DNA of 64,000 nucleotides from positions 5,852-69,851 of the forward strand of contig CAZIQM010000001.1 of NCBI GenBank assembly GCA_964541635.1. The letters are read 5' to 3'. This document shows positions 19,495 to 54,836 of the stretch, piece after piece. Both the position numbers and the translations under genes were made by a program. The notes beneath the pieces were generated by a model. The model did no database searches. It saw only the letters and a list, made by a program, of their open reading frames with translations, and was not told the origin of the DNA. Each line of letters opens with the position of its first letter. Position 1 is the stretch's first letter. The DNA is from an uncultured Candidatus Peribacteria bacterium (GTDB lineage Bacteria > Patescibacteriota > Gracilibacteria > Peribacterales > Peribacteraceae).

Positions 19495-21384
19495 ATGAAA
19501 CGGGCGCTGCTCCTGTCGGCGTGTTCGATCGTCCTCGCCTCGTGCGCGGCAGGTGAAGATACGGCGCGGCCCCCGCTCGCGCCGCTCCCGGACCACGCGA
19601 GCGCCCAACCCGACTGGCACGCGATGACCGGTGCCATCGTCCGTGCCGAGATGCACTCGACCGTCGGCGTGCTACTCGACGATTTCCCCGCGGCCTCCCG
19701 CGAACGCCTGGAACGCGAACTGCTCGCCGAGCCCGCGTCGTTCTGGATCGAGCGCGCGAAAACGCAGATCAGGCTCACGAGCATGCGACTCGATTTCCGC
19801 AACGGGTTTTACCCCAAGGGCACCAAGTGGCAATTGCCGCTCCCGCCGGAATCGACGTGGACGGTGACGATCGACGGGCAGGTGGAGAAGAAAACGATCG
19901 ACGGGCACGCCGTCATGGCCGTGCCGTACTCCGTGACGACGTCGATCCTGACCGACGAAGCGTCGCCCGGGATCTCGGAGCCGTCGCTCGCGGCGGTCGG
20001 CGGCACGTGGCGCGAACCGTTCGTCTTCCCCGTCGATCCCCTCTTCGTGTTCCAGCGCACGGGCTACGCCTGCATCAACGAGGCGCAGTTCCCGCCCAAC
20101 AGCCACGACGCCGAGGAGTCGGATCTGTTCTACGACCACGGCTGCACGGTGGAGGCGCGGCTCTCGAACGTGGGCTGCCACCAAACCGCAATGCCGACGA
20201 TGTCGTGCGTGCAGGCGTTACAAAAGAACGTCGGGCGGGTCGAAACGGCCATGGTCTTCACGCGCGCGGCGTGGGATCCCGCGGTCGCGGACGTGCTCCG
20301 CTCCGGCACGGTCACGAACCCGGACGGGCCCGATTTGGAACCGGACCACGCGGAATTCCGCAAACACCGCTTCACCTACCGGTACATCCCGGCGAATTCG
20401 TGCACGATCGAAGAGCGGTGCGTCGGCGGACCCGGATGGCGCAGGCTCCTCATGTTCCCGACGGCCGACCTTAACCGCGGCATGAAGGACCTGAACATCG
20501 GCTGGGTGGATTACTTCCACAAGGACGGCGGTTCGACGCTCTCGGAGCACGGCATGTTCGAACTCAGCGAGTGCCACGGGCACTACCACTTCTCGCACTA
20601 CGGCACGTTCTCCCTCGACGGCGAACCGCAACTGACGCGCAAGAACGGCTTCTGCATGCAGCCCACGCAGCGCATCTGGAACAACGAAGCGAGCCCGCTC
20701 CACCACCCGTTCGTCGATTGCGAGGAGCAGGGCGTGAGCCCGGGGTGGATCGACGAGTACAAGATGGGCCTCGAGTGCCAGTGGCTCGACGTCACCGACG
20801 TGCGGCCCGCGACGAAGAAGCTCTCGTTCGTCAGCAACCCCGACGACATGCTCTGCGAAGGAACGCTCAAGAAAGACGCAGACGGAAAGCAGCTCTTCAA
20901 ACCGAGCGCGTTCACGACCACCAAGGGCACGCCGGTGGACCGGCCCGTTTGCGACGAATTCCCCGGCTGGAAGGACAACAACGGCTCCGCGTACGACGTG
21001 ACGGTGCCCGTCGCGGGCGAGAGCTACGTGACGCAATCCTGCGGGATCGGGCACGACGGCCTCCTGCGCAACTGCGGCTTCACGAACGAGAAAGACCTCC
21101 TCGGGTGCGACGTGCCGGGAAAGACGATGGTCGCCGACTGCACGACCGACGCCGCGACGCCGCAGGTCGTGCGCTTCTGCGAAGGGAGCCGCGCCCTGGG
21201 CCACGGCATTCCCTGCACGGAGGGCGACGCGCTCGCGACGGCGGTGGTCGACGGCTCCGCGCGCGTGACCTTCACCTGCCCCGCCGCGCGCGACGCCGTG
21301 GAAATCGGCGGAGTGTACGGGATGATGCACGCTCCGCTTTTCGTGGGAGACGAATCCGAAACGGTGACGTGCACGGTGCGGTGA
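19495..21384 (+). CDS. lipoprotein with a lysyl-oxidase-like copper amine oxidase domain
   Basis: Lipobox LLLSAC. ECHGHYHFSHYG compares with the LOX motif CHQHYHSMDEFSHY. RKNGFCMQP, SPGWIDEYK and ECQWLDVTDV compare with LOX HKASFCLED, SPGCYDTY and CQWIDITDV. Confidence 0.75.
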   Translation: MKRALLLSACSIVLASCAAGEDTARPPLAPLPDHASAQPDWHAMTGAIVRAEMHSTVGVLLDDFPAASRERLERELLAEPASFWIERAKTQIRLTSMRLDFRNGFYPKGTKWQLPLPPESTWTVTIDGQVEKKTIDGHAVMAVPYSVTTSILTDEASPGISEPSLAAVGGTWREPFVFPVDPLFVFQRTGYACINEAQFPPNSHDAEESDLFYDHGCTVEARLSNVGCHQTAMPTMSCVQALQKNVGRVETAMVFTRAAWDPAVADVLRSGTVTNPDGPDLEPDHAEFRKHRFTYRYIPANSCTIEERCVGGPGWRRLLMFPTADLNRGMKDLNIGWVDYFHKDGGSTLSEHGMFELSECHGHYHFSHYGTFSLDGEPQLTRKNGFCMQPTQRIWNNEASPLHHPFVDCEEQGVSPGWIDEYKMGLECQWLDVTDVRPATKKLSFVSNPDDMLCEGTLKKDADGKQLFKPSAFTTTKGTPVDRPVCDEFPGWKDNNGSAYDVTVPVAGESYVTQSCGIGHDGLLRNCGFTNEKDLLGCDVPGKTMVADCTTDAATPQVVRFCEGSRALGHGIPCTEGDALATAVVDGSARVTFTCPAARDAVEIGGVYGMMHAPLFVGDESETVTCTVR

Positions 21385-25145: not shown

Positions 25146-25174
25146 TTGACAAGATTATATTACTATGACATGAT
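25146..25174 (+). promoter_or_regulatory. candidate promoter of giant surface protein gene 1
   Basis: TTGACA-N17-CATGAT, followed by a CT-rich leader. Confidence 0.4.
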
Positions 25175-25205
25175 CACCCCCTTTTTGTCACTCCTCCTCT
25201 TCCCT

Positions 25206-28200
25206 ATGGGTACGCGCACTGTATCCGTCCTCTCGCTCCTCGCGCTGTCGCTGAACGCGACCGCCGCGATGGCCGCCGAACCCGCGCAAGCGCCGTTCGG
25301 TTCGCGCGACATGGACTCGCAGGTGGACCTCTCGCAGGCCTACCTGCCCGAAGCGGTCTACGTCACGAGCGTGGCGGCGAACGTCACGGACACCTCCGTG
25401 GCGGGATCGTTCACGGTGGAGAACACGGAAGACGTCCTCGTCACCGGCCTGCAGTACCGCTTGGAACTGCGCGGCACCGGGAAGCTCGACGGACTCCCCT
25501 ACGCGATCGACGTGGTGCGCGCGTCGTTGGCGTTGGCCCCCCAGGAAAGCAAGAAACTCCTCTTCGCGACCGCCCTCCCGAACGTCCCGGCCGGCCGCTA
25601 TGACCTGCGCGTGCAGCTCCTGACCGCCAAGGGCCGCGCCCTCGGTTGGCAGGACACGCCGGTGGTCGTCGCCGCCGAGCGCGGCGCGACGGATTTCGTC
25701 ACGGTCGTGCCGGGCACGATCGGCATCGCCGCGTACGGCGACGAACTCCTGCCCCCGCTCTCGGGCCCCAACGTCGATCCCTCCGGCGCCATGACCCTGC
25801 GCGCCACGGCGATCAACGACACCGACCACGCCATCCGCGTGACGCCGGTCATCGACCTCTACGACTTCAACGCCGCGCGCGTCGGGCTCGGCAGCCTGGA
25901 ATACTCCGACCTCAACGTCGCCGCGGGCGAAACGGTGAAGCTCGACCTCCCGGTCACGGCCGACGCCGTCCCGGGCACCTACATGGCCCACCTCACGCTC
26001 AAGGACGCCGACACCGGCGAGACCCTCTCGAGCATCGCCCAGTACCGCTACGTGGTGAAAGGCGAGGACGCCGACATCGTCTCGGTCCGCATCGAGAACA
26101 TGGGCACGAAGGCAGGCGACTGGGCCTACGGCACGGTCGACATGGCCGGCGCCGCCGACGCCCTCACGACCACCGTCGCCACGCTCCGCGTGCAGCTGAC
26201 GGACGACAAGGGCACGGTCGGCTCGATCGACGTCCCGGGCATCACGCTCGCCGACTCGATCCTCTCCGCCAAGATCCGCATCCCGCTCTCGCGCGACCTC
26301 GTGGGCGCCCCGAGCGTGGACGCGAGCCTCCTCAGCGACTCCAACACGACCTACGACCACGTGACCTACGCCGGCACGCTGACGCCCGCGCAGCTCGCGG
26401 GCCTCACGCAGGACAAGGCGTTCAATAACTGGGTGGCCTGGCACGGCCTCTCCCGCATCGCCCTCTTCGCCTTCATCGCGATGGCCATGGGCTACGCGCT
26501 CTTCGCGGTCGCGTCGCGCATGCGCGCTTCGATCGCCTTCGCGCGCGCCGCGACGGCGGCGTTCCTCCTCGTCGCGTTCGTCGGCAACGTCGGTTCCGCG
26601 TTCGCGGCCGGCAGCGGCGGCATCGAGACCCTCACGCCGGTCAACGGCAGCGCGGTCTTCGCCCCGCTCGGCAACCGCCCGATCATCGCGCTGTTCGTGA
26701 ACAGCCCGGTGCACGGCCAGGCCAACAACTTCTGCAACCGCCAGATCCAGCTCAGCTACCGCCTGGAATACGGCGTGTGCGAGAACGAAATCGCCTACGC
26801 CCGCGTCGTCGGACGCGTCACGCGCAACGGCGGCCTCATCAGCGCCTACGACGTCCCCGGAACGGCCTGGGACACCGTGCACAACCGCACGTACCAGAGC
26901 CAGTTCTGCAACAACCACTTCTGCTTCCAGGAGGAGAACTTCAGCGGCATGGTCGACCTCACGAACATCGTGGACCAGAACGCCAACACCGCCACGCTCC
27001 AGCTCCTCGCCAAGTGGGGCAAGAACCTCTCGATGCCCGACGCGAGCTTCGACCGCACCGACCCGTACATCAACCTCGGCTGGGCCCACGCGTTGAACAT
27101 CCACCTGCAGTGCACGCCGCCGCAGCTGAACGTCACCAAGACCGTCCAGTCCGGCTCGGCCACGCCCGGCAGCACCGTGACCTACACGTTCGCCGTCACC
27201 AACGGCGGCCAGACGAACGCCCCGAACGTCACGCTCAACGACATCTTCCTGAACGGCAACACGCGCTACATGCCGTTCGAATACGTCGGCGCCAACGGCG
27301 CCACGTGCTCGTTCGACACCGGCGCGGTGCAGCTCTCCTGCACGCTCGGCGCGCTCACGCCCGGCCAAACGAAGACCTTCACGGCTTCGTTCCGCGTGCC
27401 GCAGAACCAACCGCAGCTGTGCGGCCAGACCGTGCGCAACCGCGCGGAGGTCCGCACGAACAACCAGTCGACGGGCTCCGCCAGCGCCGAAGCGCAGGTG
27501 AACGTCGTCTGCCCCCCGAGCTACGGCTGCGTGGAAGTCTTCAAGGAAGGCTTCACGTCCGACAACCAGCGCATCACGGGACCGCTCCCCTCCTTCACCT
27601 TCAAGCTCGATAACCAGATCACGACGACGAGCGACCAGAACGGCTTCGCCCGCTTCGAGAACGTCCAGCCCGGCACGCACTCCGTGTCGGAAATCGCCCA
27701 AAGCGGTTGGACGAACTTCCTCATCACGCCCCAAAACGGCTTCGTGACGGTCCAGGCCGGCTCGAACTGCGCAGGCGTGACGGTGAAAAACCGCCAGGAC
27801 CCGCAGGACGCCGACCTCCAGCTCGCCAAGACGGGCCCGCAGACGGTCGTCCGCGGTTCCACCGCCACCTACGCGCTCACGGTGAAGAACAACGGCCCCG
27901 TGTCCGCCACGAACACCATCGTGCGCGACACGATCCCGGCCGGCACGTCGTTCAACGCCGCGCAGTCGGACACGCGCTGCTCGATGCAGGGCAACAGCGT
28001 CGCCTGCAACGTCGGCACGCTCACGCCGGGCCAAACGGTCACGGTGTCCCTCGTGCTCAACGTCGCGAACCCCGATCCCGCCTCGTGCGCCCCGGGCACC
28101 ATCGTGAACCAAGCCGCCGCGCTCAGCGACCGCGTGGACAACAACCTCGCGAACAACCAATCGTCCTTCACCACGCAGGCAACGTGCCCGCAGCCGCAGG

Positions 28201-31200
28201 TCGGGTGCATCGAAATCCTCAAGGAAGGCTTCACGTCCGACAACCAGCGCATCACGGGCGCCCTCCCGGCGTTCTCGTTCAAGCTCGACGGCAACCAAAC
28301 CGTCCAGACGGACGCCCTCGGCCGCGCGACGTTGCAGAACGTCACGCCGGGCCAGCACACGGTCACCGAACTCACGGCCTCCGGATGGACGAACTTCCTC
28401 GTCACGCCGCAAAACGGCGTGGTGAACGTCCAAGCGGGCACGGCCTGCGCGGGCGTGACCTTCAAGAACCGCCAGGACGCGCACGACGCCGACCTCTCGC
28501 TCGTGAAAACGGGCCCGGCCAGCGTGACCCGCGGCACGACCGCGACGTACGCGCTCGCCGCGAAGAACAACGGCCCGACCGCCGCCCCGAACACGATCGT
28601 CCGCGACGAACTCCCGGCCGGCACGACCTTCAACGCCGCCCAGTCGGATAACCGCTGCACGCTCCAGGGCAACAGCATCGTCTGCAACATCGGCACGCTC
28701 GCGATCGGCCAAACGATCACGCTGTCGATCGCGCTGAACGTCCCGTCGTCGTACGTCGGAGCCACGCTCGTGAACCGCGCCGCGGTGTTGAGCGACCTCC
28801 AGGACCCAAACCTCGACAACAACCAGTCGGTCTTCACCTCGCAGGTGGCCATCGTGCAACCGCAGGTCGGCTGCATCGACGTCTTCAAGGAAGGCTTCGA
28901 CGCCGGCGGCAGCCGCCTCGGCACGGTGCCCCCGTTCACATTCATCCTCGACGGCAGCGGTGCTCTGAACGTCCACACGAATAGCGCCGGCAGCGCGCGC
29001 TTCGTGAACGTTCCCGTCGGCCAACACACGGTCTCGGAAGTCACGGCCAGCGGCTGGACCCTCTTCAACACGACGCCCACGGGCGGCGTGGTGAACGTCG
29101 CCGCGGGTTCCACCTGCGCCGGCGTCGTCTTCAAAAACCGCCAGCAACCGCTGAACGCCGACGTCTCGATCGTGAAATCCGGACCGGCCACGGCCGTCCG
29201 CGGCGGCAACCTCACCTACAGCCTCACGGTCACGAACAACGGCCCGGCCGTCGCGCAGAACGTAATGGTCGACGACCAGCTCCCCTCCGGCCTCGGCACG
29301 CCCGTGGTGTCCGGCGCGGGATGCACGGTCAATAACGGCCTCGTGCACTGCGTGATCGGCCCGATGAACGTGAACGACCAACGCATCATCACGATCAACG
29401 TCCCCGTGCCGTCGCAGCAGACCTGCCAGCCCGGCTCGGTGACGAACACCGCCACCGTCACGTCGCAGAACGACTCGCAGGCGGGCAACAACGCGAGCTC
29501 CGTCACCACGCAGCTCCAGTGCCCCACGCAGCAGCAGGCGGACCTCCTGGTGCAGAAAACCGGCCCGGCCTCCGTGGTCCGCGGCCAGAACGCGCAGTAC
29601 ACGATCCTCATGAAGAACAACGGCCCGGCCGCGTCGCCGAACACGATCGTCGGCGACCCGCTCCCCGCGGGCACGACGTTCGTCGCCGCCCAATCCGATA
29701 ACCGCTGCCAGCTCTCGGGCAACGCCGTCTTCTGCAACCTCGGCACGATGGCCCTGAACCAGCAGATCACGTTCACGCTCACGCTAAACGTCACCGCGCA
29801 GGCGCAGTGCCAGGCCGGAACGCTCCTCAACCGGGCGTCGGTCCTGGGCGACCTGCAGGATCCCTTCCTCGACAACAACCAGTCGACCTTCACGTCGCAG
29901 GTGACGTGCCCGAGCCCGACCACGGCCGACGTCTCGGTCGCGAAGACCGGACCGAGCACCGTCGTGCGCGGCACGAACCTCTCCTACGGCATCACGGTCA
30001 GCAACCTCGGCCCCGCCACCGCGAGCGGCGTCGTCCTCTCGGACGCCGTCCCCGCCGGCCTCACGCTCGTCTCCTCGGGTTCCGGCTGCTTGCTGAACAA
30101 CGGCGTCGTGACCTGCCAAATCGGCGCCCTCCCGACCGCGCAAACGCGCACCTACTCGTTCGTGTATTCGACCGGCTCCGCCCAGAACTGCGCGGCGGGC
30201 ACGGCCACGAACGTCGCCAACGTCACGTCGACCTCGACGGACCCGAACACCGCGAACAACCAGTCGACCGTCACGACGCAGATCACCTGCCCGTCGTCGA
30301 CCGGCAAGGACGTCCAGATCGCGAAGACGGGCCCCTCGGTCGTCACGCGCGGCGAGAACTTCACCTACACGCTGACCGTCACGAACAACGGTCCGGCTAC
30401 GGCCACGGGCGTCGTCGTCACCGACGTCCTCCCGAGCGGCCTCACGTTCGTCTCCACGAGCGCCGAATGCCAGAACCTGAACGGCGTCGTGACCTGCCAG
30501 GCGGGCACGATCGGCGCCGCACAATCGCGCGCGTTCTCGGTCACGGTGGTCGCCCCGGCCGTCAGCTCCTGCACGCAGGCGTCCGTCACGAACACCGCGA
30601 CGGTCACGTCGTCGGGCACGGATAACAACGTCGGCAACAACTCGAGCTCGCTCACCACGCAGGTGAACTGCCCGAACGCGCAGCTCGGCTGCATCGACGT
30701 CATCAAGGAAACGTACGACACGAACGGCAACGTCCTCACGCCGGTCACGCAGTTCACGTTCAACCTCGACGGATCGCGCACCGCCGTCAACGACGGCCAG
30801 GGCCGCGCCCGCTTCGAGAACGTGACCCTCGGCCAGCACACCGTGACGGAAAACCTCCCGAGCGGCTGGACCCAGCTCCTCGTGACGCCTTCCGGCGGCC
30901 TCGTGAACGTCACGGCCGGCACGTGCGTCGCCGTCTCGTTCAAGAACAAGCAGACCATCCAGAACTCCGGAAGCTTCTCGATCACGAAGACCGACCACGA
31001 AACGGAAGTCGAACCGGGCGACACGCTCGAGTACGAAATCCGCGTCCGCAACAACTCCTCGGTCCGCGTCACGAACGTGACGGTGACGGACACGCTGCCC
31101 GACGAAGTCGAATTCCAGGACGCCTCGCCGAACGAGTCGTCCGAGAACGGCCGCGTGATCCGCTGGGAGAACCAGACGTTCGAAGCCAACGAAGAGAAGC

Positions 31201-31856
31201 TGTACCGCGTCGAAGTCGACGTCGACGACGACGCCGACGGCACGCTCTACAACACGGCCGAGGCGCGCGGCGTCTCCGCGACGGACCGCACAGACGTCGA
31301 TGACAACGGCAACCACAACGGCAACGCGGAAATCGACCTGACCAAGACCGCGAGCACGTCGGAAGTGTTCCCCGGCGGCATCATCGATTACACGGTGCGC
31401 GTCCGCAACACGGGCGACGACCCGATCGAGAACCTCACCGTCACCGACCAGCTCCCGGCCGACGTGATCGTCATCGACGACGGCGACGCGGACAGCCGCA
31501 GCGGCCGCCGCCTGGAATGGGAAATCGACGAACTCGATGACGGCGACGAGGAAATCTTCCGCTACCGCGTCTCCGTGCCGACCTACATGGTCGCCGGCCA
31601 GATCATCCGCAACAACGTGTGCGTCGAAGCCGACGACCTCGACAACGACGAATGCGAAAGCGTGACCGTCAGCGTCCTGGGCATGATCCCGAAGACGGGT
31701 GCTAAGGCGCCGGAGCACGACACGCACCTGACGCCGGTCGCCGCGCACGACGCGCCGAGCGACGGGACCCTCCCCTTCTTCGGCCTCATCGCCCTCGCGG
31801 GCGCCGCCACGGGCGCGGGCCTCGGATTCGGCCGGAAGATGCTGTTTGGCATCTAA
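25206..31856 (+). CDS. giant cell-surface protein (2216 aa) with CARDB-like N-terminal domains, an internal TM pair, about 9 DUF11 repeats, 4 SpaA/Cna-B-type domains and a C-terminal sortase-like sorting signal
   Basis: Signal peptide MGTRTVSVLSLLALSLNATAAMA. Repeats of the form L.KTGP..V.RG....Y.L.V.NNGP. GC(I/V)E..KEGF...G.H.V.E...GWT modules. C-terminus IPKTG...FFGLIALAGAATGAGLGFGRK. Confidence 0.9.
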   Translation: MGTRTVSVLSLLALSLNATAAMAAEPAQAPFGSRDMDSQVDLSQAYLPEAVYVTSVAANVTDTSVAGSFTVENTEDVLVTGLQYRLELRGTGKLDGLPYAIDVVRASLALAPQESKKLLFATALPNVPAGRYDLRVQLLTAKGRALGWQDTPVVVAAERGATDFVTVVPGTIGIAAYGDELLPPLSGPNVDPSGAMTLRATAINDTDHAIRVTPVIDLYDFNAARVGLGSLEYSDLNVAAGETVKLDLPVTADAVPGTYMAHLTLKDADTGETLSSIAQYRYVVKGEDADIVSVRIENMGTKAGDWAYGTVDMAGAADALTTTVATLRVQLTDDKGTVGSIDVPGITLADSILSAKIRIPLSRDLVGAPSVDASLLSDSNTTYDHVTYAGTLTPAQLAGLTQDKAFNNWVAWHGLSRIALFAFIAMAMGYALFAVASRMRASIAFARAATAAFLLVAFVGNVGSAFAAGSGGIETLTPVNGSAVFAPLGNRPIIALFVNSPVHGQANNFCNRQIQLSYRLEYGVCENEIAYARVVGRVTRNGGLISAYDVPGTAWDTVHNRTYQSQFCNNHFCFQEENFSGMVDLTNIVDQNANTATLQLLAKWGKNLSMPDASFDRTDPYINLGWAHALNIHLQCTPPQLNVTKTVQSGSATPGSTVTYTFAVTNGGQTNAPNVTLNDIFLNGNTRYMPFEYVGANGATCSFDTGAVQLSCTLGALTPGQTKTFTASFRVPQNQPQLCGQTVRNRAEVRTNNQSTGSASAEAQVNVVCPPSYGCVEVFKEGFTSDNQRITGPLPSFTFKLDNQITTTSDQNGFARFENVQPGTHSVSEIAQSGWTNFLITPQNGFVTVQAGSNCAGVTVKNRQDPQDADLQLAKTGPQTVVRGSTATYALTVKNNGPVSATNTIVRDTIPAGTSFNAAQSDTRCSMQGNSVACNVGTLTPGQTVTVSLVLNVANPDPASCAPGTIVNQAAALSDRVDNNLANNQSSFTTQATCPQPQVGCIEILKEGFTSDNQRITGALPAFSFKLDGNQTVQTDALGRATLQNVTPGQHTVTELTASGWTNFLVTPQNGVVNVQAGTACAGVTFKNRQDAHDADLSLVKTGPASVTRGTTATYALAAKNNGPTAAPNTIVRDELPAGTTFNAAQSDNRCTLQGNSIVCNIGTLAIGQTITLSIALNVPSSYVGATLVNRAAVLSDLQDPNLDNNQSVFTSQVAIVQPQVGCIDVFKEGFDAGGSRLGTVPPFTFILDGSGALNVHTNSAGSARFVNVPVGQHTVSEVTASGWTLFNTTPTGGVVNVAAGSTCAGVVFKNRQQPLNADVSIVKSGPATAVRGGNLTYSLTVTNNGPAVAQNVMVDDQLPSGLGTPVVSGAGCTVNNGLVHCVIGPMNVNDQRIITINVPVPSQQTCQPGSVTNTATVTSQNDSQAGNNASSVTTQLQCPTQQQADLLVQKTGPASVVRGQNAQYTILMKNNGPAASPNTIVGDPLPAGTTFVAAQSDNRCQLSGNAVFCNLGTMALNQQITFTLTLNVTAQAQCQAGTLLNRASVLGDLQDPFLDNNQSTFTSQVTCPSPTTADVSVAKTGPSTVVRGTNLSYGITVSNLGPATASGVVLSDAVPAGLTLVSSGSGCLLNNGVVTCQIGALPTAQTRTYSFVYSTGSAQNCAAGTATNVANVTSTSTDPNTANNQSTVTTQITCPSSTGKDVQIAKTGPSVVTRGENFTYTLTVTNNGPATATGVVVTDVLPSGLTFVSTSAECQNLNGVVTCQAGTIGAAQSRAFSVTVVAPAVSSCTQASVTNTATVTSSGTDNNVGNNSSSLTTQVNCPNAQLGCIDVIKETYDTNGNVLTPVTQFTFNLDGSRTAVNDGQGRARFENVTLGQHTVTENLPSGWTQLLVTPSGGLVNVTAGTCVAVSFKNKQTIQNSGSFSITKTDHETEVEPGDTLEYEIRVRNNSSVRVTNVTVTDTLPDEVEFQDASPNESSENGRVIRWENQTFEANEEKLYRVEVDVDDDADGTLYNTAEARGVSATDRTDVDDNGNHNGNAEIDLTKTASTSEVFPGGIIDYTVRVRNTGDDPIENLTVTDQLPADVIVIDDGDADSRSGRRLEWEIDELDDGDEEIFRYRVSVPTYMVAGQIIRNNVCVEADDLDNDECESVTVSVLGMIPKTGAKAPEHDTHLTPVAAHDAPSDGTLPFFGLIALAGAATGAGLGFGRKMLFGI

Positions 31857-31885
31857 GCGGCTAAAGCATCGCCATCACGCCAATG

Positions 31886-31908
31886 AGGCTTCCTCGGGAA
31901 GCCTTTTT
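31886..31908 (+). terminator. intrinsic terminator of giant gene 1
   Basis: AGGCTTCC-tcg-GGAAGCCT-TTTTGG. Confidence 0.8.
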
Positions 31909-31952
31909 GGCATGTTTAGCAGTGAGGATCGACTGTTTTGCCCAGGAAAACA

Positions 31953-31982
31953 TTGACAAAAAAGATCATATGGGCCAATACT
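31953..31982 (+). promoter_or_regulatory. candidate promoter of giant gene 2
   Basis: TTGACA-N18-AATACT in an AT-rich spacer, followed by a CT-rich leader. Confidence 0.45.
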
Positions 31983-32013
31983 ATTTTCTTTCTATCTCTC
32001 TCCCTCCCGGTTT

Positions 32014-35000
32014 ATGGTCCGTTCGACGTTGCAGAAGCGCACCGCTTCCGCCCTCCTCCTTACGACCATCGCGGTCCAGCTGCACGTCAGCGGAGCGCTC
32101 TCGGCGTTGCAGAACACGCCGGTCTTCCGGCCGTTCATCGGCGTCCCCGCTGCGGAAGCGCAGACGACGGGCTTCTATGATGAAGGCGCCATGCCGAAGT
32201 ACGGCAAGACGTGGATCGCGTCGATCACGTGCCGCGATTCGAACGGGGCCACCACGACGATCGGCGGAACGGGAAACCCCGAAGTGGTGAAGAACGCCGT
32301 GCGCCAAGCCATCGCGAACCGCGGCCTCGGCCTCACGCCGCCGAACAACCCGATCGTCCGCACGGACGGCGGCACGGGAGCGGGTTTCAACTGGAACGAC
32401 AACAGCGGCACGCCCGCGCTGAACGACCTCAATGCCGTGTGCCAGATCCTTGGCTATCCCACGTACATCAGCTCGACCTGCCGCGACGAAGAGCGTTCGG
32501 GCATCTACCCGAACGGCAAGTGCAACTTCCACTCGCCCGAAGACAACCAACTCTCGCGCCTGAGCGGCACCTTCACGACCTCCGCCTGCAGCGACGGCGT
32601 GGATAACGACGGCGACGGACGCGTCGACTTCCCCTCCGATCCGGGCTGCGTGAACGCGCAGGACACCGACGAAGCGGATCCGACGAACAACGCCCGCTGC
32701 TTGAGCATCATCACCCCGAACGTCATCAACGTGGGCCAGCAATTCCAGGCCACGGTCACGATGCAGAACAACGGCGGCACGACGTGGAGCACGAGCAACT
32801 ACAAACTCAGCTCCGAGAACCCCATGGATAACCTCACGTGGGGCATCAACCGCGTGGACCTCCCGCAGAACACCGCGGTGAACGGCAGCGCGACCTTCAC
32901 GTTCACGGCCACGGCGCCGTCGACGCAGGGAACGTACAACTTCGATTTCGGCATGGTGCAGACCAACCTCGGCCACTTCGGCGAGATCTGCCGCAAGAGC
33001 CTCACCCTGACGCCGGTCCAGTGCCCGTCGTCCACGGTGAACGCCACCTTCGAAGGCAACCAAGGACCGTGGGAAGACGTCGCCCCGAACGGCGACGCCA
33101 AGGCCCCGACCTTCGTGGGCAACGTACAGCCCGGCACCGTCATGAAAGTGAACTCGGTGAACGGGACGTACTCCGCCCGCATCTACGGCGGCGTCGACCA
33201 ACTCCCGGTGAGCTGCGACAACGGCACGCTCAGCTTCACGGGCAACAGCAACAGCACGATCTCGAGCATCAAGCTCAACGCGATCGGCAGCAACGGCGTC
33301 ACGGTGCCGAACGGCGCCACGCGCGCGTTCGTGAGCCACGACGAACCCGGCTCGTTCAACTACTTCGATAACTCCGGCAACCGCGACCACCGCGCCCCCT
33401 GCCAGGTGAACTTCGGCATCGTGCCGACGTCGTGCCAGCAGCCCCAGTGCCGCGACGGCCTCGATAACGACGGCGACGGACTCACCGACTTCCCGGCCGA
33501 TCCGGGCTGCATCAACCAGGACGACAACGACGAATCGCCGCGCAACATCGGCAACCTCGACGTCGAAAAGGTCCTCGACGGCCAGATCGTCCCGGGCCAG
33601 ACGGCGCAGTACACGATCACGGTCCGCAACAACGGCAACGTCGCCGCGCAGAACGTGAACGTCTACGACTACTTCCTCGACGACCAGGACCTCAAGTACG
33701 TGCCCTTCACGTACGTCTCGAGCGCCGGCGTGAACTGCTCCTACCAGTCGGGCCTCCAGCAGGTGTCCTGCCCGGTCGGGACGGTCGCCGCCGGATCGAC
33801 GGTCACGATCACCCTCCGCTTCAACGTCCCGCAAACCCAATCCTGCAACACGCAGGTAAAGAACCGCGTCGACGCGTGGATCAACGGTCAGCAGGCCGGC
33901 GCCGACACCGACGACGTCTCGTCGGGCGTCCAGTGCCCCTTCCAGTGCTCCGACGGCCGCGATAACGACGGCGACGGACTCACGGACTTCCCGCAGGATC
34001 CGGGCTGCGTAAACGCGCAGGACAACGACGAATTCAACGCTCCCCAGTGCCAGGACGGCATCGATAACGACCAGGACGGCGTCACGGACTACCCGAACGA
34101 CTTCTCCTGCTCATCCCCGACGGACAACGACGAAACGAACCCCAAGGCCGCCTGCCAGGACGGCCTCGATAACGACAACGACGGACGCGTCGACTTCCCG
34201 CAGGACGTCGGTTGCGTGAACAACCAGGACAACGACGAAACGGATCCCTACACGTTCCTCTACGTGTACAAAACCGGCCCCGTCGACGCCACCCGCGGCT
34301 CGAACATCCCCTACACGATCAACGTCCGCAACAACGGCGCTTCCATCGCGCAGAACGTGGTGGTCCAGGACATCTTCCCGACCGGCCTCTCGTTCGTCGC
34401 CGCCCAAAGCACCGCGGGCTGCACGGCGGGTCCGAACACGATCACCTGCAACGTCGGCGCCATCCAGCCCGGCCAAGACAAGGAACTGACGCTCGTCTTC
34501 ACCGCCACCACGACGGTCGCGTGCGAAGGCATCGTCCAGAACCGCGCGCAGGCCACGGCCTCGAACGTGCAGGGCACGAGCGTGGGCAACCAGTGGTCCA
34601 CGACGATCCACTGCACCGCGCAGTGCCAGGACGGCATCGACAACGACGGCGACGGAGCGACGGACTACCCGAACGACTTCAGCTGTTCGTCCCCGACCGA
34701 CACCGACGAAACGAACCCGAAGGCGGCCTGCCAGGACGGCGTCGACAACGACGGTGACGGCCTGACGGACTTCCCCCAAGACCCGGGCTGCGTCAGCAAG
34801 CAGGACAACGACGAATCGAACGCGTCGCAGTGCAACGACGGCATCGACAACGACGGCGACGGAGCGACCGATTACCCGAACGACTTCAGCTGTTCGTCCC
34901 CGACCGACACCGACGAAACGAACCCGAAGGCGGCCTGCCAGGACGGCTTCGACAACGACTTCGACGGCAAAGTCGACTTCCCGCAGGATCCCGGTTGCGC

Positions 35001-37824
35001 CAGCAAACAGGATAACGATGAATTCAACGCCCCGTTGCCCGCCTGCCAGGACGGCATCGACAACGACGGCGACGGACGCGTCGACCTCCAGGATCCGGGC
35101 TGCAGCGGCCCCACTGACACGAACGAAGGCGACGAAGCGCAGTGCCAGGACCTCCGCGACAACGACGGGGACGGCCTGACGGACTTCCCCTTCGATCCGG
35201 GCTGCGCGAGCCCCTCGGATAACGACGAATTCAACCAGACCCAAACGGTGGACGTGCAGATCACGAAGACCGGCCCGGCGAGCGTCGTCCGCGGCCAGAC
35301 CCTCGTCTACACGATCCAAGTCGGCAACGCCGGAAACGCGCAGGCCACGAACGTGACGGTCGTCGACCAGATCCCGGCCGGCGTCACCTTCAACGACAAC
35401 GCCAGCTACTTCCCCTGCCAGCAGCAGGGCAACCAGGTCTCGTGCCCCATCGGCACGCTGCCCGCGGGCGTGTTCGGCTCGTTCCAGATCTCCTTCGACG
35501 TCCCGACGGTCCCGAACTGCGTCCAAGGCCAGACGCAGCCCATCGTGAATACGGCGACGATCACCGCGACCGAAGACAGCGCGACGACGGGTAACAACGC
35601 GTCGTCGACGGCGAACGCCCCGGCGCGCGTCGATTGCCCCGCCTCGCCCCAGTGCTCCGACGGCATCGATAACGACGCCGACGGCGCCACGGACTTCCCG
35701 AACGACTTCAGCTGTTCCTCCCCGACCGACACCGACGAAACGAACCCGAAGGCGGCCTGCCAGGACGGCTTCGACAACGACTTCGATGGTCTCACAGACT
35801 TCCCGTTGGACCCCGGTTGCGCCAGCAAACAGGACAACGACGAAGCCAACGCCCCGGCCACGCAGTGCACCGACGGCATCGATAACGACGGCGACGGACG
35901 CATCGACACGCAGGACGCGGGCTGCGCCAACCCGACGGACAACAACGAAGGCGACGGCGCCGCCGACCTCGGCGTCACGCTGAACGGCCCGTCGACGGTG
36001 CAGGGCGGCACGAACGCCACGTACATCGCGACGATCTCGAACAACGGCCCCGACGCCGTCACCACGCCCGCCACGATCCGCATCGCGATCCCGAACGGCG
36101 TCACCTTCAACCCGAACTCCTCCAGCCCCGGCTGCGTCCAGAACGGCAACGCGGTGGTCTGCTCGGGCATCACGCTCGGCACGACCTTCCCGAACAACCA
36201 GACGCAACGCACGATCTCGTTCTCGGTCCCGGGAAACCAACTCGGTTCCCGCGGCACGAACCTGATCGACATCGCGTTCGGCGTCGAGACGGCGCAGGCG
36301 CAGGCGGTGGGCGTGTGCAACACGACGATCGTCGTGACGGTGACGATCCCGCAGAACGCCAACCCCGATCCGAACCAGACGAACAACACGGCCACGGTCT
36401 CGACGTTCGTGTCCTGCCAGCAGTTCCAGTGCAGCGACGGCATCGACAACGACGGCGACGGACGCACGGACTTCCCGAGCGATCCGGGCTGCACCTCGGC
36501 CCAGGACAACAACGAAGGCGACGAAGCCGCGTGCCAGGACCGCCGCGACAACGACGGCGACGGCCTCGTGGACTGGCCGCTCGATCCGGGCTGCGTGAGC
36601 CCGACGGACACCGACGAATTCAACGCCCCGTTGCCCGCCTGCAGCGACGGCCAGGACAACGACCATGACGGCCGCATCGACATGCTCGATCCGGGCTGCA
36701 GCAACCCGCAGGACACCAACGAAGGCGACGATCCCGCCTGCAGCGACCGCATCGACAACGACAACGACGGCTTGGTCGACTGGCCGCTCGATCCGGGCTG
36801 CGTCGGCCCGACCGACACGGACGAAACCAACGCCCTGCCCCAGTGCAGCGACGGCCTCGACAACGACTTCGACGGCAAGGTCGACATGCTCGATCCGGGC
36901 TGCAGCAGCCCGCAGGACAACAACGAAGGCGATGATCCGGTCCAATCCGGCTGCGTCGAGATCACGAAGCAGACGTTCGACCCGCACGGCACGGCGCTCC
37001 CGGTGACCGCGCAGTTCACGTTCATCCTCGACGCCACCCGCGTCGCCTACAACGATTCCACGGGCCGCGCGCGCTTCGATAACGTCCTCGCCGGCACCCA
37101 CACGGTCGCCGAAATCATCCCGTCCGGTTGGACGCAGCTGTCGATCACGCCGGCCAACGGCCTCGTGACGGTCGCCCCCGGCCAGACCTGCGCCCAGATC
37201 ACCTTCCGCAACCGCCAGGTGTTCGTCGCCAACGCGCAGTGCAACGACGGCTACGACAACGACGGCGACGGATTGGTCGACTACCCGCAGGACACGGGCT
37301 GCTCCAGCGCCACGGACAACGACGAGTACAACAGCACGTTCGTGCCGCAGTGCCGCGACGGCATCGACAACGACGGCGACGGGCTGAGCGACTACCCGCT
37401 GGACCCGGGCTGCGCGAACCAGGACGACAACAACGAGCAGAACCAATCGGTGACGCCCGCCTGTTCCGACAACCTGGATAACGACGGCGACGGCCTGAAG
37501 GACTACCCGGCCGATCCGGGCTGCGCCAACGCGCTCGACACCGACGAAACGAACGCCGCCGGCTCCTACGCCTGCAACGACAACGTCGACAACGACGGCG
37601 ACGGCGTGAAGGACTTCCCGCAGGATCCGGGCTGCTCCAGCGCCACGGACAACGACGAGTTCAACTTCCGCGTCCCGCGCTGCTCCGACGGCATCGATAA
37701 CGACGGCGACGGATTGAAGGACTATCCCCAGGACACCGGCTGCACCACGCCGTACGACGACAACGAGTACAACGACCGCCTGTGGCTCGACCGCTGGCGC
37801 GAGTGGTGGAACTGGAACTGGTAA
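32014..37824 (+). CDS. giant secreted protein (1936 aa) with 24 Cys-bracketed DNDGDG (Ca-binding-like) modules, DUF11 repeats, an NBR1-FW-like Ig domain, one SpaA-like domain and a Trp-rich C-terminus
   Basis: Signal peptide. C.DG.DND.DG..D(F/Y/W)P.DPGC....D.(D/N)E occurs 24 times. There are 4-5 KTGP/NNG DUF11 units. Ends in ...DRLWLDRWREWWNWNW*. Confidence 0.9.
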   Translation: MVRSTLQKRTASALLLTTIAVQLHVSGALSALQNTPVFRPFIGVPAAEAQTTGFYDEGAMPKYGKTWIASITCRDSNGATTTIGGTGNPEVVKNAVRQAIANRGLGLTPPNNPIVRTDGGTGAGFNWNDNSGTPALNDLNAVCQILGYPTYISSTCRDEERSGIYPNGKCNFHSPEDNQLSRLSGTFTTSACSDGVDNDGDGRVDFPSDPGCVNAQDTDEADPTNNARCLSIITPNVINVGQQFQATVTMQNNGGTTWSTSNYKLSSENPMDNLTWGINRVDLPQNTAVNGSATFTFTATAPSTQGTYNFDFGMVQTNLGHFGEICRKSLTLTPVQCPSSTVNATFEGNQGPWEDVAPNGDAKAPTFVGNVQPGTVMKVNSVNGTYSARIYGGVDQLPVSCDNGTLSFTGNSNSTISSIKLNAIGSNGVTVPNGATRAFVSHDEPGSFNYFDNSGNRDHRAPCQVNFGIVPTSCQQPQCRDGLDNDGDGLTDFPADPGCINQDDNDESPRNIGNLDVEKVLDGQIVPGQTAQYTITVRNNGNVAAQNVNVYDYFLDDQDLKYVPFTYVSSAGVNCSYQSGLQQVSCPVGTVAAGSTVTITLRFNVPQTQSCNTQVKNRVDAWINGQQAGADTDDVSSGVQCPFQCSDGRDNDGDGLTDFPQDPGCVNAQDNDEFNAPQCQDGIDNDQDGVTDYPNDFSCSSPTDNDETNPKAACQDGLDNDNDGRVDFPQDVGCVNNQDNDETDPYTFLYVYKTGPVDATRGSNIPYTINVRNNGASIAQNVVVQDIFPTGLSFVAAQSTAGCTAGPNTITCNVGAIQPGQDKELTLVFTATTTVACEGIVQNRAQATASNVQGTSVGNQWSTTIHCTAQCQDGIDNDGDGATDYPNDFSCSSPTDTDETNPKAACQDGVDNDGDGLTDFPQDPGCVSKQDNDESNASQCNDGIDNDGDGATDYPNDFSCSSPTDTDETNPKAACQDGFDNDFDGKVDFPQDPGCASKQDNDEFNAPLPACQDGIDNDGDGRVDLQDPGCSGPTDTNEGDEAQCQDLRDNDGDGLTDFPFDPGCASPSDNDEFNQTQTVDVQITKTGPASVVRGQTLVYTIQVGNAGNAQATNVTVVDQIPAGVTFNDNASYFPCQQQGNQVSCPIGTLPAGVFGSFQISFDVPTVPNCVQGQTQPIVNTATITATEDSATTGNNASSTANAPARVDCPASPQCSDGIDNDADGATDFPNDFSCSSPTDTDETNPKAACQDGFDNDFDGLTDFPLDPGCASKQDNDEANAPATQCTDGIDNDGDGRIDTQDAGCANPTDNNEGDGAADLGVTLNGPSTVQGGTNATYIATISNNGPDAVTTPATIRIAIPNGVTFNPNSSSPGCVQNGNAVVCSGITLGTTFPNNQTQRTISFSVPGNQLGSRGTNLIDIAFGVETAQAQAVGVCNTTIVVTVTIPQNANPDPNQTNNTATVSTFVSCQQFQCSDGIDNDGDGRTDFPSDPGCTSAQDNNEGDEAACQDRRDNDGDGLVDWPLDPGCVSPTDTDEFNAPLPACSDGQDNDHDGRIDMLDPGCSNPQDTNEGDDPACSDRIDNDNDGLVDWPLDPGCVGPTDTDETNALPQCSDGLDNDFDGKVDMLDPGCSSPQDNNEGDDPVQSGCVEITKQTFDPHGTALPVTAQFTFILDATRVAYNDSTGRARFDNVLAGTHTVAEIIPSGWTQLSITPANGLVTVAPGQTCAQITFRNRQVFVANAQCNDGYDNDGDGLVDYPQDTGCSSATDNDEYNSTFVPQCRDGIDNDGDGLSDYPLDPGCANQDDNNEQNQSVTPACSDNLDNDGDGLKDYPADPGCANALDTDETNAAGSYACNDNVDNDGDGVKDFPQDPGCSSATDNDEFNFRVPRCSDGIDNDGDGLKDYPQDTGCTTPYDDNEYNDRLWLDRWREWWNWNW

Positions 37825-37843
37825 ATCCGCCGATACTCACGAC

Positions 37844-37868
37844 GAGGGGGCCGAAAGGCCCTCTTTTC
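37844..37868 (+). terminator. intrinsic terminator of giant gene 2
   Basis: GAGGGGGCC-gaaa-GGCCCTC-TTTTCG. Confidence 0.75.
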
Positions 37869-37871
37869 GTA

Positions 37872-54832: not shown

Positions 54833-54836
54833 CGGT

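Follow-up and report, generated by a model that had tools for sequence, protein, structure and literature searches.

A giant acidic repeat protein of an uncultured Peribacteria bacterium with probable calcium-binding modules and a conserved Trp-rich C-terminal tag

The locus lies in a 64-kb window (the whole stretch of DNA analysed, 64,000 nucleotides) from an uncultured Peribacteria (Patescibacteria/CPR) bacterium. It encodes a 1936-aa protein, preceded by a second giant gene, and the transcription signals lie between and behind the two genes as follows:

25206..31856, + strand: giant gene 1, the upstream partner (translation, Pfam/NCBIfam, hydropathy and motif scan)
31880..31910, + strand: intrinsic terminator hairpin of gene 1 (-18.5 kcal/mol, z -4.0) with a U-run
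31953..31982, + strand: promoter-like site TTGACA-N18-AATACT (consensus scan, 10/12 matches)
32014..37824, + strand: coding sequence of the 1936-aa protein, ATG start, TAA stop
37839..37870, + strand: intrinsic terminator hairpin, common to the convergent pth gene (-22.4 kcal/mol, z -5.9), with a U-run

The 1936-aa reading frame described in an earlier note on this DNA is genuine, and the gene, hereafter the W-tail gene, is a separate transcription unit. Strong hairpins with U-runs stand after gene 1 and after the W-tail gene, as had been proposed, and the TTGACA promoter assigned to the gene was borne out by comparison of six orthologous intergenic regions, in which TTGACA and CAATACT are both invariant and the spacer between the two genes measures 157-162 bp. 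At the position of the gene 1 terminator, the five other loci carry a hairpin of different sequence with a T-run. Downstream of the promoter-like site lies a conserved leader that is rich in pyrimidines and lacks a Shine-Dalgarno sequence.

The product of gene 1 has a signal peptide and an Ig-rich N-domain, contains two hydrophobic segments in its interior and nine DUF11/CLIPPER domains as well as SpaA-like ones, and ends in IPKTG, a 26-aa spacer, a TM segment and GRKMLFGI. A gene of this type (CLIPPER/DUF11, IPxTG and TM) is directly upstream of the W-tail gene in 6/6 loci, and the halves of gene 1 match two separate genes that come after a sortase gene in a distant relative. Searches with tblastn found no sortase gene in the 64-kb window or in the orthologous flanks. 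The neighbours in the orthologous loci are pth, SPase I, secE, nusG and murJ, and two genomes contain a second tandem paralogue with the same tail.

The product of the W-tail gene is a secreted, very acidic surface-fibre protein. The mature form has a mass of ~199 kDa and a pI of ~4.05, with 287 D+E vs 77 K+R. Its parts, from the N-terminus to the last repeat module, are:

32014..32160, + strand: long N-terminal signal-like region, residues 1-49 (hydropathy, N-terminal alignment)
32161..32580, + strand: N-terminal head domain, residues 50-189, four Cys (alignments)
32587..32673, + strand: acid repeat module 1 (relaxed pattern, NF033662)
32719..32985, + strand: NBR1-type Ig-like domain (N_BRCA1_IG / choice-of-anchor V-like), residues 236-324 (PF16158)
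32986..33447, + strand: conserved domain, residues 325-478, kept in P0002-P0004
33448..33534, + strand: acid repeat module 2 (relaxed pattern, NF033662)
33535..33945, + strand: CLIPPER/DUF11-type Ig-like domain 1 (DUF11, DUF7927; boundaries from the flanking modules)
33946..34239, + strand: acid repeat modules 3-5 (relaxed pattern, NF033662)
34240..34623, + strand: CLIPPER/DUF11-type domain 2 (DUF7507 at residues 759-858, TIGR01451 at residues 758-801)
34624..35229, + strand: acid repeat modules 6-11 (relaxed pattern)
35230..35652, + strand: CLIPPER/DUF11 domain 3, the best Pfam stretch, residues 1080-1199
35653..35949, + strand: acid repeat modules 12-14 (relaxed pattern)
35950..36429, + strand: divergent CLIPPER/DUF11 domain 4 (DUF11 E 9.8e-7, scanned alone)
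36430..36927, + strand: acid repeat modules 15-19 (relaxed pattern)
36928..37239, + strand: SpaA-like (prealbumin-fold) domain, residues 1640-1737 (similarity to a gene 1 segment)
37240..37767, + strand: acid repeat modules 20-24 (relaxed pattern)

The signal-like region consists of K8R9, the hydrophobic stretch ASALLLTTIAVQL and then A-E-A|Q, the putative cleavage site, and is kept in orthologues and paralogues. Hydropathy analysis showed it to be the sole hydrophobic segment of the protein, and a combined motif and hydropathy scan found no LPXTG-type motif with a TM segment and basic end, so that the absence of a TM anchor or LPXTG, remarked on previously, holds.

P0002-P0004 and P0006 share the head domain at residues 50-189, while P0005, P0007 and the tandem paralogues have another head in its place; neither this domain nor residues 325-478 matched a Pfam family. 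Among the stalk domains, the DUF11/CLIPPER family (PF01345) matches four stretches (E 4.7e-46, 156.2 bits vs a gathering score of 24.6), in agreement with the interleaved DUF11 domains of the earlier note, and TIGR01451 scores 109.7 bits on the protein. The NBR1-FW-like Ig domain was also recovered, barely over threshold (PF16158, E 1.6e-6, 29.0 bits vs a cut-off of 28), with an NF041895 match at the same domain under its own cut-off (E 5.1e-5). The SpaA-like domain received no direct Pfam SpaA match, either in the whole protein or in segment 1640-1737, and its assignment stands indirectly, through 49% identity (E 3e-27) to a gene 1 segment that does match SpaA PF17802. A phmmer search of the PDB with a CLIPPER domain gave no match.

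In fibrillar adhesins, CLIPPER has been characterised by experiment as a stalk domain (PMC12617251). With those adhesins the W-tail protein has in common a signal peptide, N-terminal non-repeat heads, a stalk of CLIPPER and SpaA-type Ig domains and a length of ~2000 aa. It differs in having no recognised C-terminal sorting or anchor domain (LPXTG, OmpA-like, TM), and its stalk is dominated by the acid mini-modules, whereas that of fibrillar adhesins is a tandem Ig array.

All 24 module copies counted previously were confirmed, both by the relaxed pattern C.D..DND.DG..D.{2,6}[GS]C.{3,5}D.[DN]E and by NCBIfam NF033662, which matches 24 stretches with 365.8 bits (E 3.4e-112) against a curated cut-off of 41 bits, the best stretch spanning positions 3-28 of the 32-position model. 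The stricter consensus given for every copy (position 4 G/N/R, [FYW]-P, D-P-G-C) was too narrow and fits 12/24 modules only; D-F-S-C occurs in 4/24, and four short modules are without the [FYW]-P residues. The mini-modules are ~34 residues long, modules 6-11 include a super-repeat of two modules (207 bp, 86% DNA identity), and the last two modules are unusually conserved. Judged by this profile match, the modules are a known repeat type, not a new one, the "acidic double-disulfide repeat" (acid_disulf_rpt), and hundreds of homologues carry 8-40 modules of this type in Patescibacteria, Myxococcota and one Woesearchaeota archaeon. The repeat described in the earlier note thus maps cleanly to an existing, curated family. 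A literature search found no experimental work on NF033662, and no function follows from membership. Two disulfides per repeat are implied by the family name, which may describe one repeat or a pair, whereas each module here, like those of the aligned homologues, has exactly two invariant Cys, which allow one disulfide.

Across the modules D9-N10-D11-x-D13-G14...D17 is invariant, corresponding to a Dx[DN]xDG loop with a downstream acidic ligand. When a single-module profile was searched against the PDB, the top match was the teneurin-4 C-rich domain (7plp_A, E 0.001), aligned from Cys to Cys (profile positions 2-25 to chain residues 11-33), and phmmer with six modules also found this domain (E 0.0088). 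The crystal structure of the teneurin-4 domain contains three bound Ca2+ and a C838-C857 disulfide (PMC9058538), and this disulfide aligns with the two Cys positions of the module. Seven of the nine side-chain Ca ligands (D840, D843, N844, D845, D847, D851, D854) are invariant in all 24 modules. The teneurin-4 match, the aligned disulfide and the invariant ligands therefore lend homology support to the earlier reading of a Ca-loop core stapled by a Cys pair, and the modules probably bind calcium through such a stapled DxDxDG loop, a deduction from homology at E 0.001 across ~24 residues.

The likeness to the teneurin C-rich domain (human teneurin-4 residues 834-871, PDB 7PLP; Drosophila Ten-m 8FIA) lies in the core C-x-D-x-x-D-N-D-G-D-G-L-x-D-x-x-D-P-x-C and in the loop length, which equals that of the four short modules; its statistical support is modest. 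The remaining 20/24 modules have one extra residue, with [FYW]-P in place of Cys852 (teneurin Cys 2), a position occupied in the modules by F, Y, W, L, M or T. Teneurin has six Cys in three disulfides (1-3, 2-5, 4-6) and a single copy of the domain, whereas the modules keep only Cys 1 and Cys 3, are without Cys 4-6 and the conotoxin-like C-terminal half, and occur as 24 tandem or interspersed copies. The ligands E835 and D856 are not conserved in the modules, and their absence, like that of two of the three teneurin disulfides, counts against the calcium assignment.

AlphaFold modelling of three modules gave a pLDDT of 86 within modules and a pTM of 0.50; the model is confident within modules and not between them, and did not bear out the "Ca-rigidified" fibre of the earlier note. 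A Foldseek search with this model returned 7plp_B as the only PDB match, over 16 columns (rmsd 1.5 Angstrom), a non-significant result (E 3.2) from a method that is weak on loops lacking regular secondary structure. Calmodulin EF-hand loops dominate the three-module profile search of the PDB (E 1e-7 to 1e-10) because their ~36-residue spacing coincides, and they were rejected as homologues, the resemblance being at motif level only.

Thrombospondin type 3 (T3) repeats likewise have a Cys-bracketed DxDxDGxxD and form long, Ca-dependent, wire-like arrays, and the teneurin paper equates C-rich Ca sites I and II with T3 sites (PMC9058538). The T3 resemblance noted earlier thus stands at motif level only: Pfam TSP_3 (PF02412), dockerin (PF00404) and MopE (PF11617), the families also named then, gave no match to the protein at E <= 0.01, and no thrombospondin chain was among the single-module-profile PDB matches at E <= 1. 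PF11617 is recorded only for the distant homologue P0039.

With its 287 acidic residues, pI of 4.05 and at least 48 inferred Ca sites, the protein might serve mainly as a cation sink or mineral-nucleating matrix that buffers or concentrates Ca2+ or other metals at the surface, instead of forming an adhesive fibre, and Dx[DN]xDG loops are reported to bind Ca in many contexts (PMC3123361). We regard this as very unlikely, given that a signal peptide, variable heads and a CLIPPER/SpaA/Ig stalk make up the architecture of a fibrillar adhesin (PMC12617251), that the homologous motif is structural in teneurin (PMC9058538), and that the pairing with an anchored stalk protein is conserved.

Beyond the last module, the protein ends in a Trp-rich tail, about which the NF033662 model says nothing:

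37768..37821, + strand: C-terminal tail YNDRLWLDRWREWWNWNW, conserved in orthologues and paralogues
37789-37821, + strand: invariant tail core D-R-W-[RK]-[ER]-[WFL]-W-[ND]-W-N-W (orthologue/paralogue alignment)

The tail contains 6 Trp in the last 14 residues (6/13 in the last 13), one fewer than the seven first reported, compared with a Trp content of 0.5% elsewhere in the protein (10/1918 residues). It is not a chance feature. The core is conserved in ~15 proteins, orthologues and tandem paralogues encoded in assemblies of uncultured Peribacteria; overall identity is as low as 39% in some, and every copy ends W-stop. Synonymous changes affect the codons for D, R/K, E and N and leave the peptide as it is. 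Absence from orthologues, which the earlier note had named as fatal to its proposal, was thus replaced by the opposite finding. The tail starts exactly where the next module would be expected to begin. By favourable Wimley-White interfacial free energy it ranks first in the protein (-5.7 kcal/mol over 15 aa); the runner-up among 15-residue stretches that do not overlap it reaches -2.6 kcal/mol. Its helical hydrophobic moment is reached by 6% of shuffles, and the four invariant Trp fall on one face of a beta-strand, an arrangement expected in ~6% of cases by chance. The net charge of the core is ~+1; DDNEYND precedes it, and the stretch upstream is strongly acidic. From an alignment of eight sequences, AlphaFold modelled the last 200 residues at a pLDDT of 43, so the helix drawn for the tail carries no weight, and a search of the PDB with the tail peptide found no match even at E 10.

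Such a strictly C-terminal, highly conserved element closing every copy with W-stop could be a new general sorting signal comparable to LPXTG, PEP-CTERM or the T9SS CTD, recognised by a dedicated enzyme and found on several cargo proteins, and the earlier note had envisaged a new sorting motif on other proteins. The searches largely refute this reading, which we now consider extremely improbable. Of 1.84 billion representative proteins searched by phmmer with the last 34 residues, five matched via the tail, all in the acid-repeat family. A degenerate DNA pattern of the tail, scanned against 185,579 species genomes, gave four matches, all in Peribacteria and one per genome, at the same locus in 3/3 whose flanks were examined. 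The single match in a metagenome collection was rejected as a chance one in non-coding sequence, and the 64-kb window has no second reading frame with an ending of this type. NCBIfam and Pfam sorting-signal models (PEP-CTERM, MYXO-CTERM, GlyGly-CTERM, T9SS CTD and others) did not match, and no candidate processing enzyme is conserved beside the gene. The tail also lacks a TM helix, which to our knowledge all known sortase-type signals require. On the databases searched, it appears as a tag confined to one acid-repeat family, tandem paralogues included, within a narrow Peribacteria clade.

Several other assignments were considered for the tail and rejected. Its aromatic end and alternating pattern recall an OMP beta-signal, but Patescibacteria are monoderm; a type I secretion signal does not fit a protein with an N-terminal Sec-type signal; WxL domains and choline-binding repeats were discarded since the tail is much too short and contains no W-x-L motif; and eukaryotic W-x-x-W C-mannosylation is not applicable in bacteria.

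In related Patescibacteria proteins with the same modules (P0009, P0018, P0022, P0056, P0060, P0068, P0076 and P0094), the C-terminus carries PxTG, a spacer, a TM segment and basic residues, and the Trp tag occupies the position of this anchor. From its position, conservation and synteny, the tag probably holds the fibre on the cell. C-terminal amphipathic helices act as in-plane membrane anchors in E. coli PBP5/PBP6. Other in-plane or interfacial anchors (pestivirus Erns, PMC3937272; classifier, PMC1564421) resemble the tail in being C-terminal, without a TM helix and of favourable interfacial energy. The tail differs in its far shorter core (11 aa), its much higher Trp content and its invariant polar residues, which are unusual for a purely lipid-binding segment; its helical amphipathicity is not significant, and beta periodicity fits the invariant Trp about equally. 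The shortness of the 11-residue core for an in-plane anchor, together with its position after a strongly acidic stretch, speaks against a membrane tether.

Clustered Trp with Arg/Asn, W-x-W and W-W runs are also described for the lipid-binding peptides puroindoline-a/PuroA and gp41 MPER (PMC7696940, PMC8084527), which have no sequence homology with the tail and differ in being cationic or beside a TM helix, whereas the tail is nearly neutral with a free C-terminus. These peptides provide a precedent for the tail as a distal effector, a Trp/Arg-rich membrane-active peptide that would insert into a host or prey membrane while the fibre is held via its N-terminus or gene 1. The strongly favourable interfacial partitioning would suit this role; CPR bacteria related to Peregrinibacteria are epibionts, and giant surface proteins have been proposed to mediate host attachment (PMC8080830). 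We nevertheless consider it unlikely. The N-terminus resembles a cleavable signal peptide with a conserved A-x-A site, which leaves no evident anchor at that end, the related proteins are anchored by their C-terminus, and the variable heads are N-terminal, as in fibrillar adhesins (PMC12617251). The low positive charge of the core and the acidic residues before it also fit poorly with such a peptide.

Trp-zipper-type beta pairing has an alternating pattern that W-N-W-N-W resembles. The tail might accordingly be a self-association or capping element, either bundling fibres through their Trp tails or folding back on the hydrophobic face of the last module and in neither case tethering the fibre, a role with which its start exactly at the next-module position and the unusual conservation of the last two modules would agree. 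This too seems improbable to us: four invariant Trp, a fixed free C-terminus and invariant D, R and N are more than a cap would need, the five other arrays of modules meet Ig domains at their internal ends without such an element, and the C-terminal AlphaFold model (pLDDT 43) does not support it.

The explanation that we prefer, and hold to be an evenly balanced proposition as a whole, is a Sec-exported ~199 kDa Ca-repeat fibre that is non-covalently tethered by its C-terminal Trp tag. The shaft would alternate the 24 mini-modules with four CLIPPER/DUF11, one SpaA-like and one NBR1-type Ig stalk domain. Each mini-module would be a DxDxDG Ca loop closed by a single disulfide and a homologue of the teneurin C-rich domain's N-terminal core. 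With at least two Ca2+ inferred per module, the shaft would depend on both calcium and oxidation to fold and become stiff once outside the cell. Ligand binding would fall to the head domains, at the distal end, and the tag would tether the cell-proximal end, an orientation that, like the disulfides, is deduced. The tag may dock onto the co-encoded giant protein 1, anchored by its IPxTG and TM, or may serve as a Trp-rich in-plane anchor by partitioning into the interface of the membrane; docking on gene 1 is slightly favoured, given that the invariance extends to the polar residues and the free C-terminus. In its most specific form, the proposal would make the 11-residue tag a new non-covalent docking signal, recognised for example through a beta-strand or the free C-terminus, that plugs a Ca-repeat fibre onto a co-encoded giant stalk protein with a sortase-type/TM anchor; this we put forward tentatively, as a possibility that is more doubtful than not.

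Giant surface proteins are thought to let tiny, host-dependent CPR bacteria recognise and hold other cells, and almost nothing is known of how these proteins are constructed and attached. The analysis provides a structural hypothesis for the widespread prokaryotic repeat NF033662, as Ca loops of the teneurin C-rich/T3 type with one disulfide each, and the nearest PDB relationship of this bacterial repeat, to the metazoan teneurin C-rich domain, is relevant to the proposal that teneurins have a bacterial ancestry. The tag is narrowly distributed, with about a dozen metagenome-assembled genomes and contigs carrying it, and its general importance is limited accordingly; within one Peribacteria clade, it is a compact candidate attachment tag replacing the usual PxTG and TM anchor, as part of a conserved two-gene module of an anchored stalk and a tagged fibre. 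If the docking reading is true, Peribacteria cells would bear a two-component, heteromeric surface appendage of ~4000 residues, expanded in two lineages through a second tagged paralogue.

The reading frame reported earlier on this DNA runs from 32014 to 37824 on the + strand, exactly as noted, with 1936 codons, an ATG start and a TAA stop. Its product, the W-tail protein, has a computed mass of ~199 kDa and a computed pI of 4.05 in the mature form. The sole hydrophobic segment is a signal-like one at the N-terminus, and LPXTG and a TM anchor are absent, in agreement with the earlier note. The closest relatives, P0002-P0008, share 39-71% identity. Their sources are metagenome-assembled genomes and contigs from metagenomes; the titled assemblies among these are all labelled Candidatus Peribacteria or Peribacteraceae. 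Gene order is conserved in six loci, and ORFs of equal sizes are present in the window. The conserved order and the C-terminal tail are as follows:

Upstream side: glyoxalase / DUF1761, then giant gene 1 (25206-31856, +), then the W-tail gene (32014-37824, +)
Directly after the W-tail gene, in two genomes: a second tandem paralogue
Downstream, opposite strand: pth and two small genes
Further downstream, in order: signal peptidase I, secE, nusG, murJ
End of the conserved order: a protein with a faint SLH match, then a Mur ligase
C-terminus of the W-tail protein: Trp-rich tail peptide, YNDRLWLDRWREWWNWNW

The second paralogue is shorter and differs in its N-terminal head, but shares the Trp tail (L001 16831-20805, L002 16038-19088); P0008 and P0121 represent such a tandem case, on a single contig of 19,391 bp. 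Upstream, a few kilobases from the surface-protein genes, a 629-aa ORF (19495-21384, +) matches the lysyl oxidase family (PF01186, E 1.3e-12), a domain uncommon in bacteria. A third giant ORF (48737-54994, -) encodes a 2085-aa product with abundant Ala, Leu, Glu and Arg, and has no Pfam matches; the + strand ORF overlapping it (2271 aa, 17% Arg, GC3 0.65) is probably spurious. GC3 is 0.92-0.94 for gene 1 and the W-tail gene (25146-37824), compared with 0.80 for this third ORF, and GC content just upstream of the surface-protein genes (22-26 kb) falls to 51-56%.

Trp makes up 0.5% of the W-tail protein outside the tail. Six Trp were counted in the last 14 residues, one fewer than first reported, and the first Trp of the tail as originally given (R-L-W) is not conserved. 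All of P0002-P0008 end in DRWRE[WFL]W[ND]WNW, and the same ending is found in two tandem paralogues, two further GTDB genomes, P0121 and P0122, the last as the variant DRWRRWWNWNW. The tail is thus not unique to one protein; absence from orthologues, raised beforehand as a possible refutation, was not observed. The core of 11 residues, D-R-W-[RK]-[ER]-[WFL]-W-[ND]-W-N-W-stop, is invariant down to 39% overall protein identity, while its codons for D, R/K, E and N show synonymous differences between genomes. Selection on the tail is therefore on the peptide and not on the DNA.

To define the distribution of the tail, a degenerate DNA pattern was searched in 185,579 species genomes, giving four sites, all in Peribacteria and one per genome; among 241 million metagenome records, only a chance match was found. 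Phmmer, with the 34 C-terminal residues as query and 1.84 billion representative proteins as target, gave five matches through the tail, all of them acid-repeat family members, and none of the other frames in the window has an ending of this kind. The proposal of a new shared sorting motif was thus not borne out, as the tail is confined to the acid-repeat family in genome, metagenome and protein scans. Given this narrow distribution, these comparisons indicate that the tail is real and selected, and a family-specific tag, not a shared sorting signal. Other acid-repeat proteins have conserved endings of their own: one set ends in '...[IVL]PR[FT]xxxC' plus one or two residues (P0012, P0015, P0025, P0027, P0043, P0047, P0085, P0105), and another large set, some members of which are labelled Myxococcota, in 'PRFGNFELSVxE' (P0021, P0030-P0034 and others).

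Gene 1 precedes the W-tail gene in every locus compared, and encodes an anchored, CLIPPER-rich product of ~2200 aa. The product ends in IP[KTR]TG, after which come ~26 spacer residues, a TM helix rich in Gly, and GRKxLxGI. Comparison with a distant relative (L013 6966-10498) makes gene 1 look like a fusion: in that relative its halves are two separate genes that immediately follow a sortase gene. The N-terminal Ig-rich domain of ~410 aa plus TM matches a membrane protein of 444 aa that stands alone (P0137, 36% identity), and the sequence beyond the internal hydrophobic segments matches the gene after it (429 aa, ending ...AKTG plus TM). This arrangement marks gene 1 as a sortase-type surface stalk; a tblastn search for a sortase gene in the window and the orthologous flanks gave no match. 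An ending of this kind, [ILVYP]P.TG followed by a 25-40-residue spacer, a TM helix rich in Gly, and basic residues, recurs in Patescibacteria (gene 1, window 31680-31856, and eight other proteins); it is sortase-signal-like, but its spacer is unusually long and its spacing atypical.

The two genes also have separate transcription signals, as proposed. A promoter-like site, TTGACA-N18-AATACT, lies at 31953-31982, and gene 1 is followed by a terminator hairpin with a U-run (-18.5 kcal/mol, z -4.0); a second one lies 3' of the W-tail gene (-22.4 kcal/mol, z -5.9). Across six orthologous loci, the spacer between the genes measures 157-162 bp, the -35 box, -10 box and leader are invariant, and the gene 1 terminator keeps its hairpin with varying sequence. 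From promoter to ATG, the leader carries a block, CAATACTACTTCCTTTCT, that does not vary, together with a C-rich tract (spacers at window 31857-32013, L001, L002, L003, L009 and L010), and no Shine-Dalgarno sequence was found in the leader of these six spacers.

Module-bearing Patescibacteria relatives (P0009, P0018, P0022, P0056, P0060, P0068, P0076, P0094) end in PxTG, a spacer, a TM segment and basic residues. Since these carry the same modules, the C-terminus in this protein class would be the cell-proximal, anchored end, with the tag of the W-tail protein in the place of the anchor; a rival explanation instead makes the tail a distal, membrane-active tip. The last 15 residues have a Wimley-White interfacial free energy of -5.7 kcal/mol, by far the most favourable in the protein. 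Position, partner gene and membrane affinity together make a putative non-covalent C-terminal tether the most likely role. Such a tether could dock on a specific receptor, most simply the gene 1 product, or insert into the membrane interface. Docking is slightly preferred, because specific recognition, more than lipid partitioning, would typically keep polar residues invariant and the free C-terminus fixed; insertion is a close second. The helical hydrophobic moment of the tail is equalled by 6% of shuffles, and the helix modelled by AlphaFold has a pLDDT below 50. In beta geometry, the four invariant Trp all fall on one face, with a chance about equal to the helical case (6%). The tail has also been considered as a self-association or capping element, a rival to the preferred tether.

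The shaft preceding the tail contains 24 modules, short Cys-bracketed acid repeats, as previously counted. All 24 match the relaxed pattern C.D..DND.DG..D.{2,6}[GS]C.{3,5}D.[DN]E, whereas the strict consensus first given fits only 12; sub-types outside it include four modules with D-F-S-C and four short ones without the [FYW]-P pair. They are arranged in blocks of 1, 1, 3, 6, 3, 5 and 5, separated by segments of 104-258 residues, and module number ranges from 15 to 31 among orthologues. No Pfam model for the module was found in a scan of the protein. NCBIfam NF033662 ("acidic double-disulfide repeat-containing protein") gives 24 matches (E 3.4e-112), so the repeat belongs to a family already curated but unstudied, for which no paper was found.

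Six modules used as a query against the PDB matched a 49-residue teneurin-4 chain, and the profile of all 24 gave the teneurin-4 C-rich domain (7PLP, E 0.001) as best match, followed by Drosophila Ten-m and full-length teneurin-4. In 7PLP, three Ca2+ ions are fully coordinated, with E835, D840, D843, N844, D845, D847, D851, D854 and D856 as side-chain ligands, and the disulfides are C838-C857, C852-C863 and C858-C869 (PMC9058538). The alignment spans the first to the second module Cys, which align with C838 and C857. D840, D843, N844, D845, D847, D851 and D854 correspond to columns invariant in 24/24 modules, whereas conservation does not extend to E835, D856 or the four remaining Cys. Teneurin C-rich Ca sites I and II are equated with thrombospondin type 3 sites (PMC9058538), which explains the thrombospondin-like impression formed earlier; that likeness holds at motif level, although the Pfam TSP_3, dockerin and MopE models gave no match. 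A match of a three-module profile to calmodulin EF-hand loops was read as the shared linear motif Dx[DN]xDG (PMC3123361) and not as fold homology.

Three consecutive modules were modelled with AlphaFold using an alignment of 70 triple-module sequences drawn from 120 homologues. The model lacks regular secondary structure; pLDDT is 86 within modules and pTM only 0.50, which supports the module folds but not the rigid fibre proposed earlier. Its sole Foldseek match in the PDB was 7PLP, not significant. Most likely, each module is a reduced version of the related teneurin C-rich core and forms a calcium loop, with an inferred single disulfide and inferred binding of at least two Ca2+. A rival explanation takes the whole protein as a pure cation sink. 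The best PDB match of the bacterial repeat is the metazoan teneurin C-rich domain (7PLP / 8FIA), and placing this repeat as the domain's nearest PDB sequence relative is a new observation. A descent of teneurins from bacterial toxin genes has been proposed, so their C-rich domain may have the same origin.

Among the module separators, four Pfam DUF11 stretches (E 4.7e-46) substantiate the interleaving described before. The NBR1-FW Ig domain is present at the margin (N_BRCA1_IG, residues 236-324, 29.0 bits with the cut-off at 28). The SpaA-like domain has no direct Pfam match, but is 49% identical (E 3e-27) to a SpaA-matching segment of gene 1. DUF11, renamed CLIPPER, is experimentally a CnaA-like domain, often isopeptide cross-linked, and builds the stalks of fibrillar adhesins (PMC12617251). 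Like these, the W-tail protein has a signal peptide, non-repeat N-terminal heads and then a long shaft. No Pfam family was found for the head (residues 50-189) or the domain at 325-478; both are kept in some orthologues, while P0005, P0007 and the tandem paralogues have a different head. This replacement is compatible with a variable, ligand-binding distal end.

Giant surface proteins form a known class in CPR bacteria (PMC8080830), and the stalk domain types found here are likewise known. New here are the Trp-rich tag, conserved at the C-terminus, and its association with a partner gene whose product is anchored. The interest is moderate, given that only a small clade has the tag and that the role assigned to it is a proposal. 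Acid-repeat proteins may in general carry C-terminal tags specific to their family.
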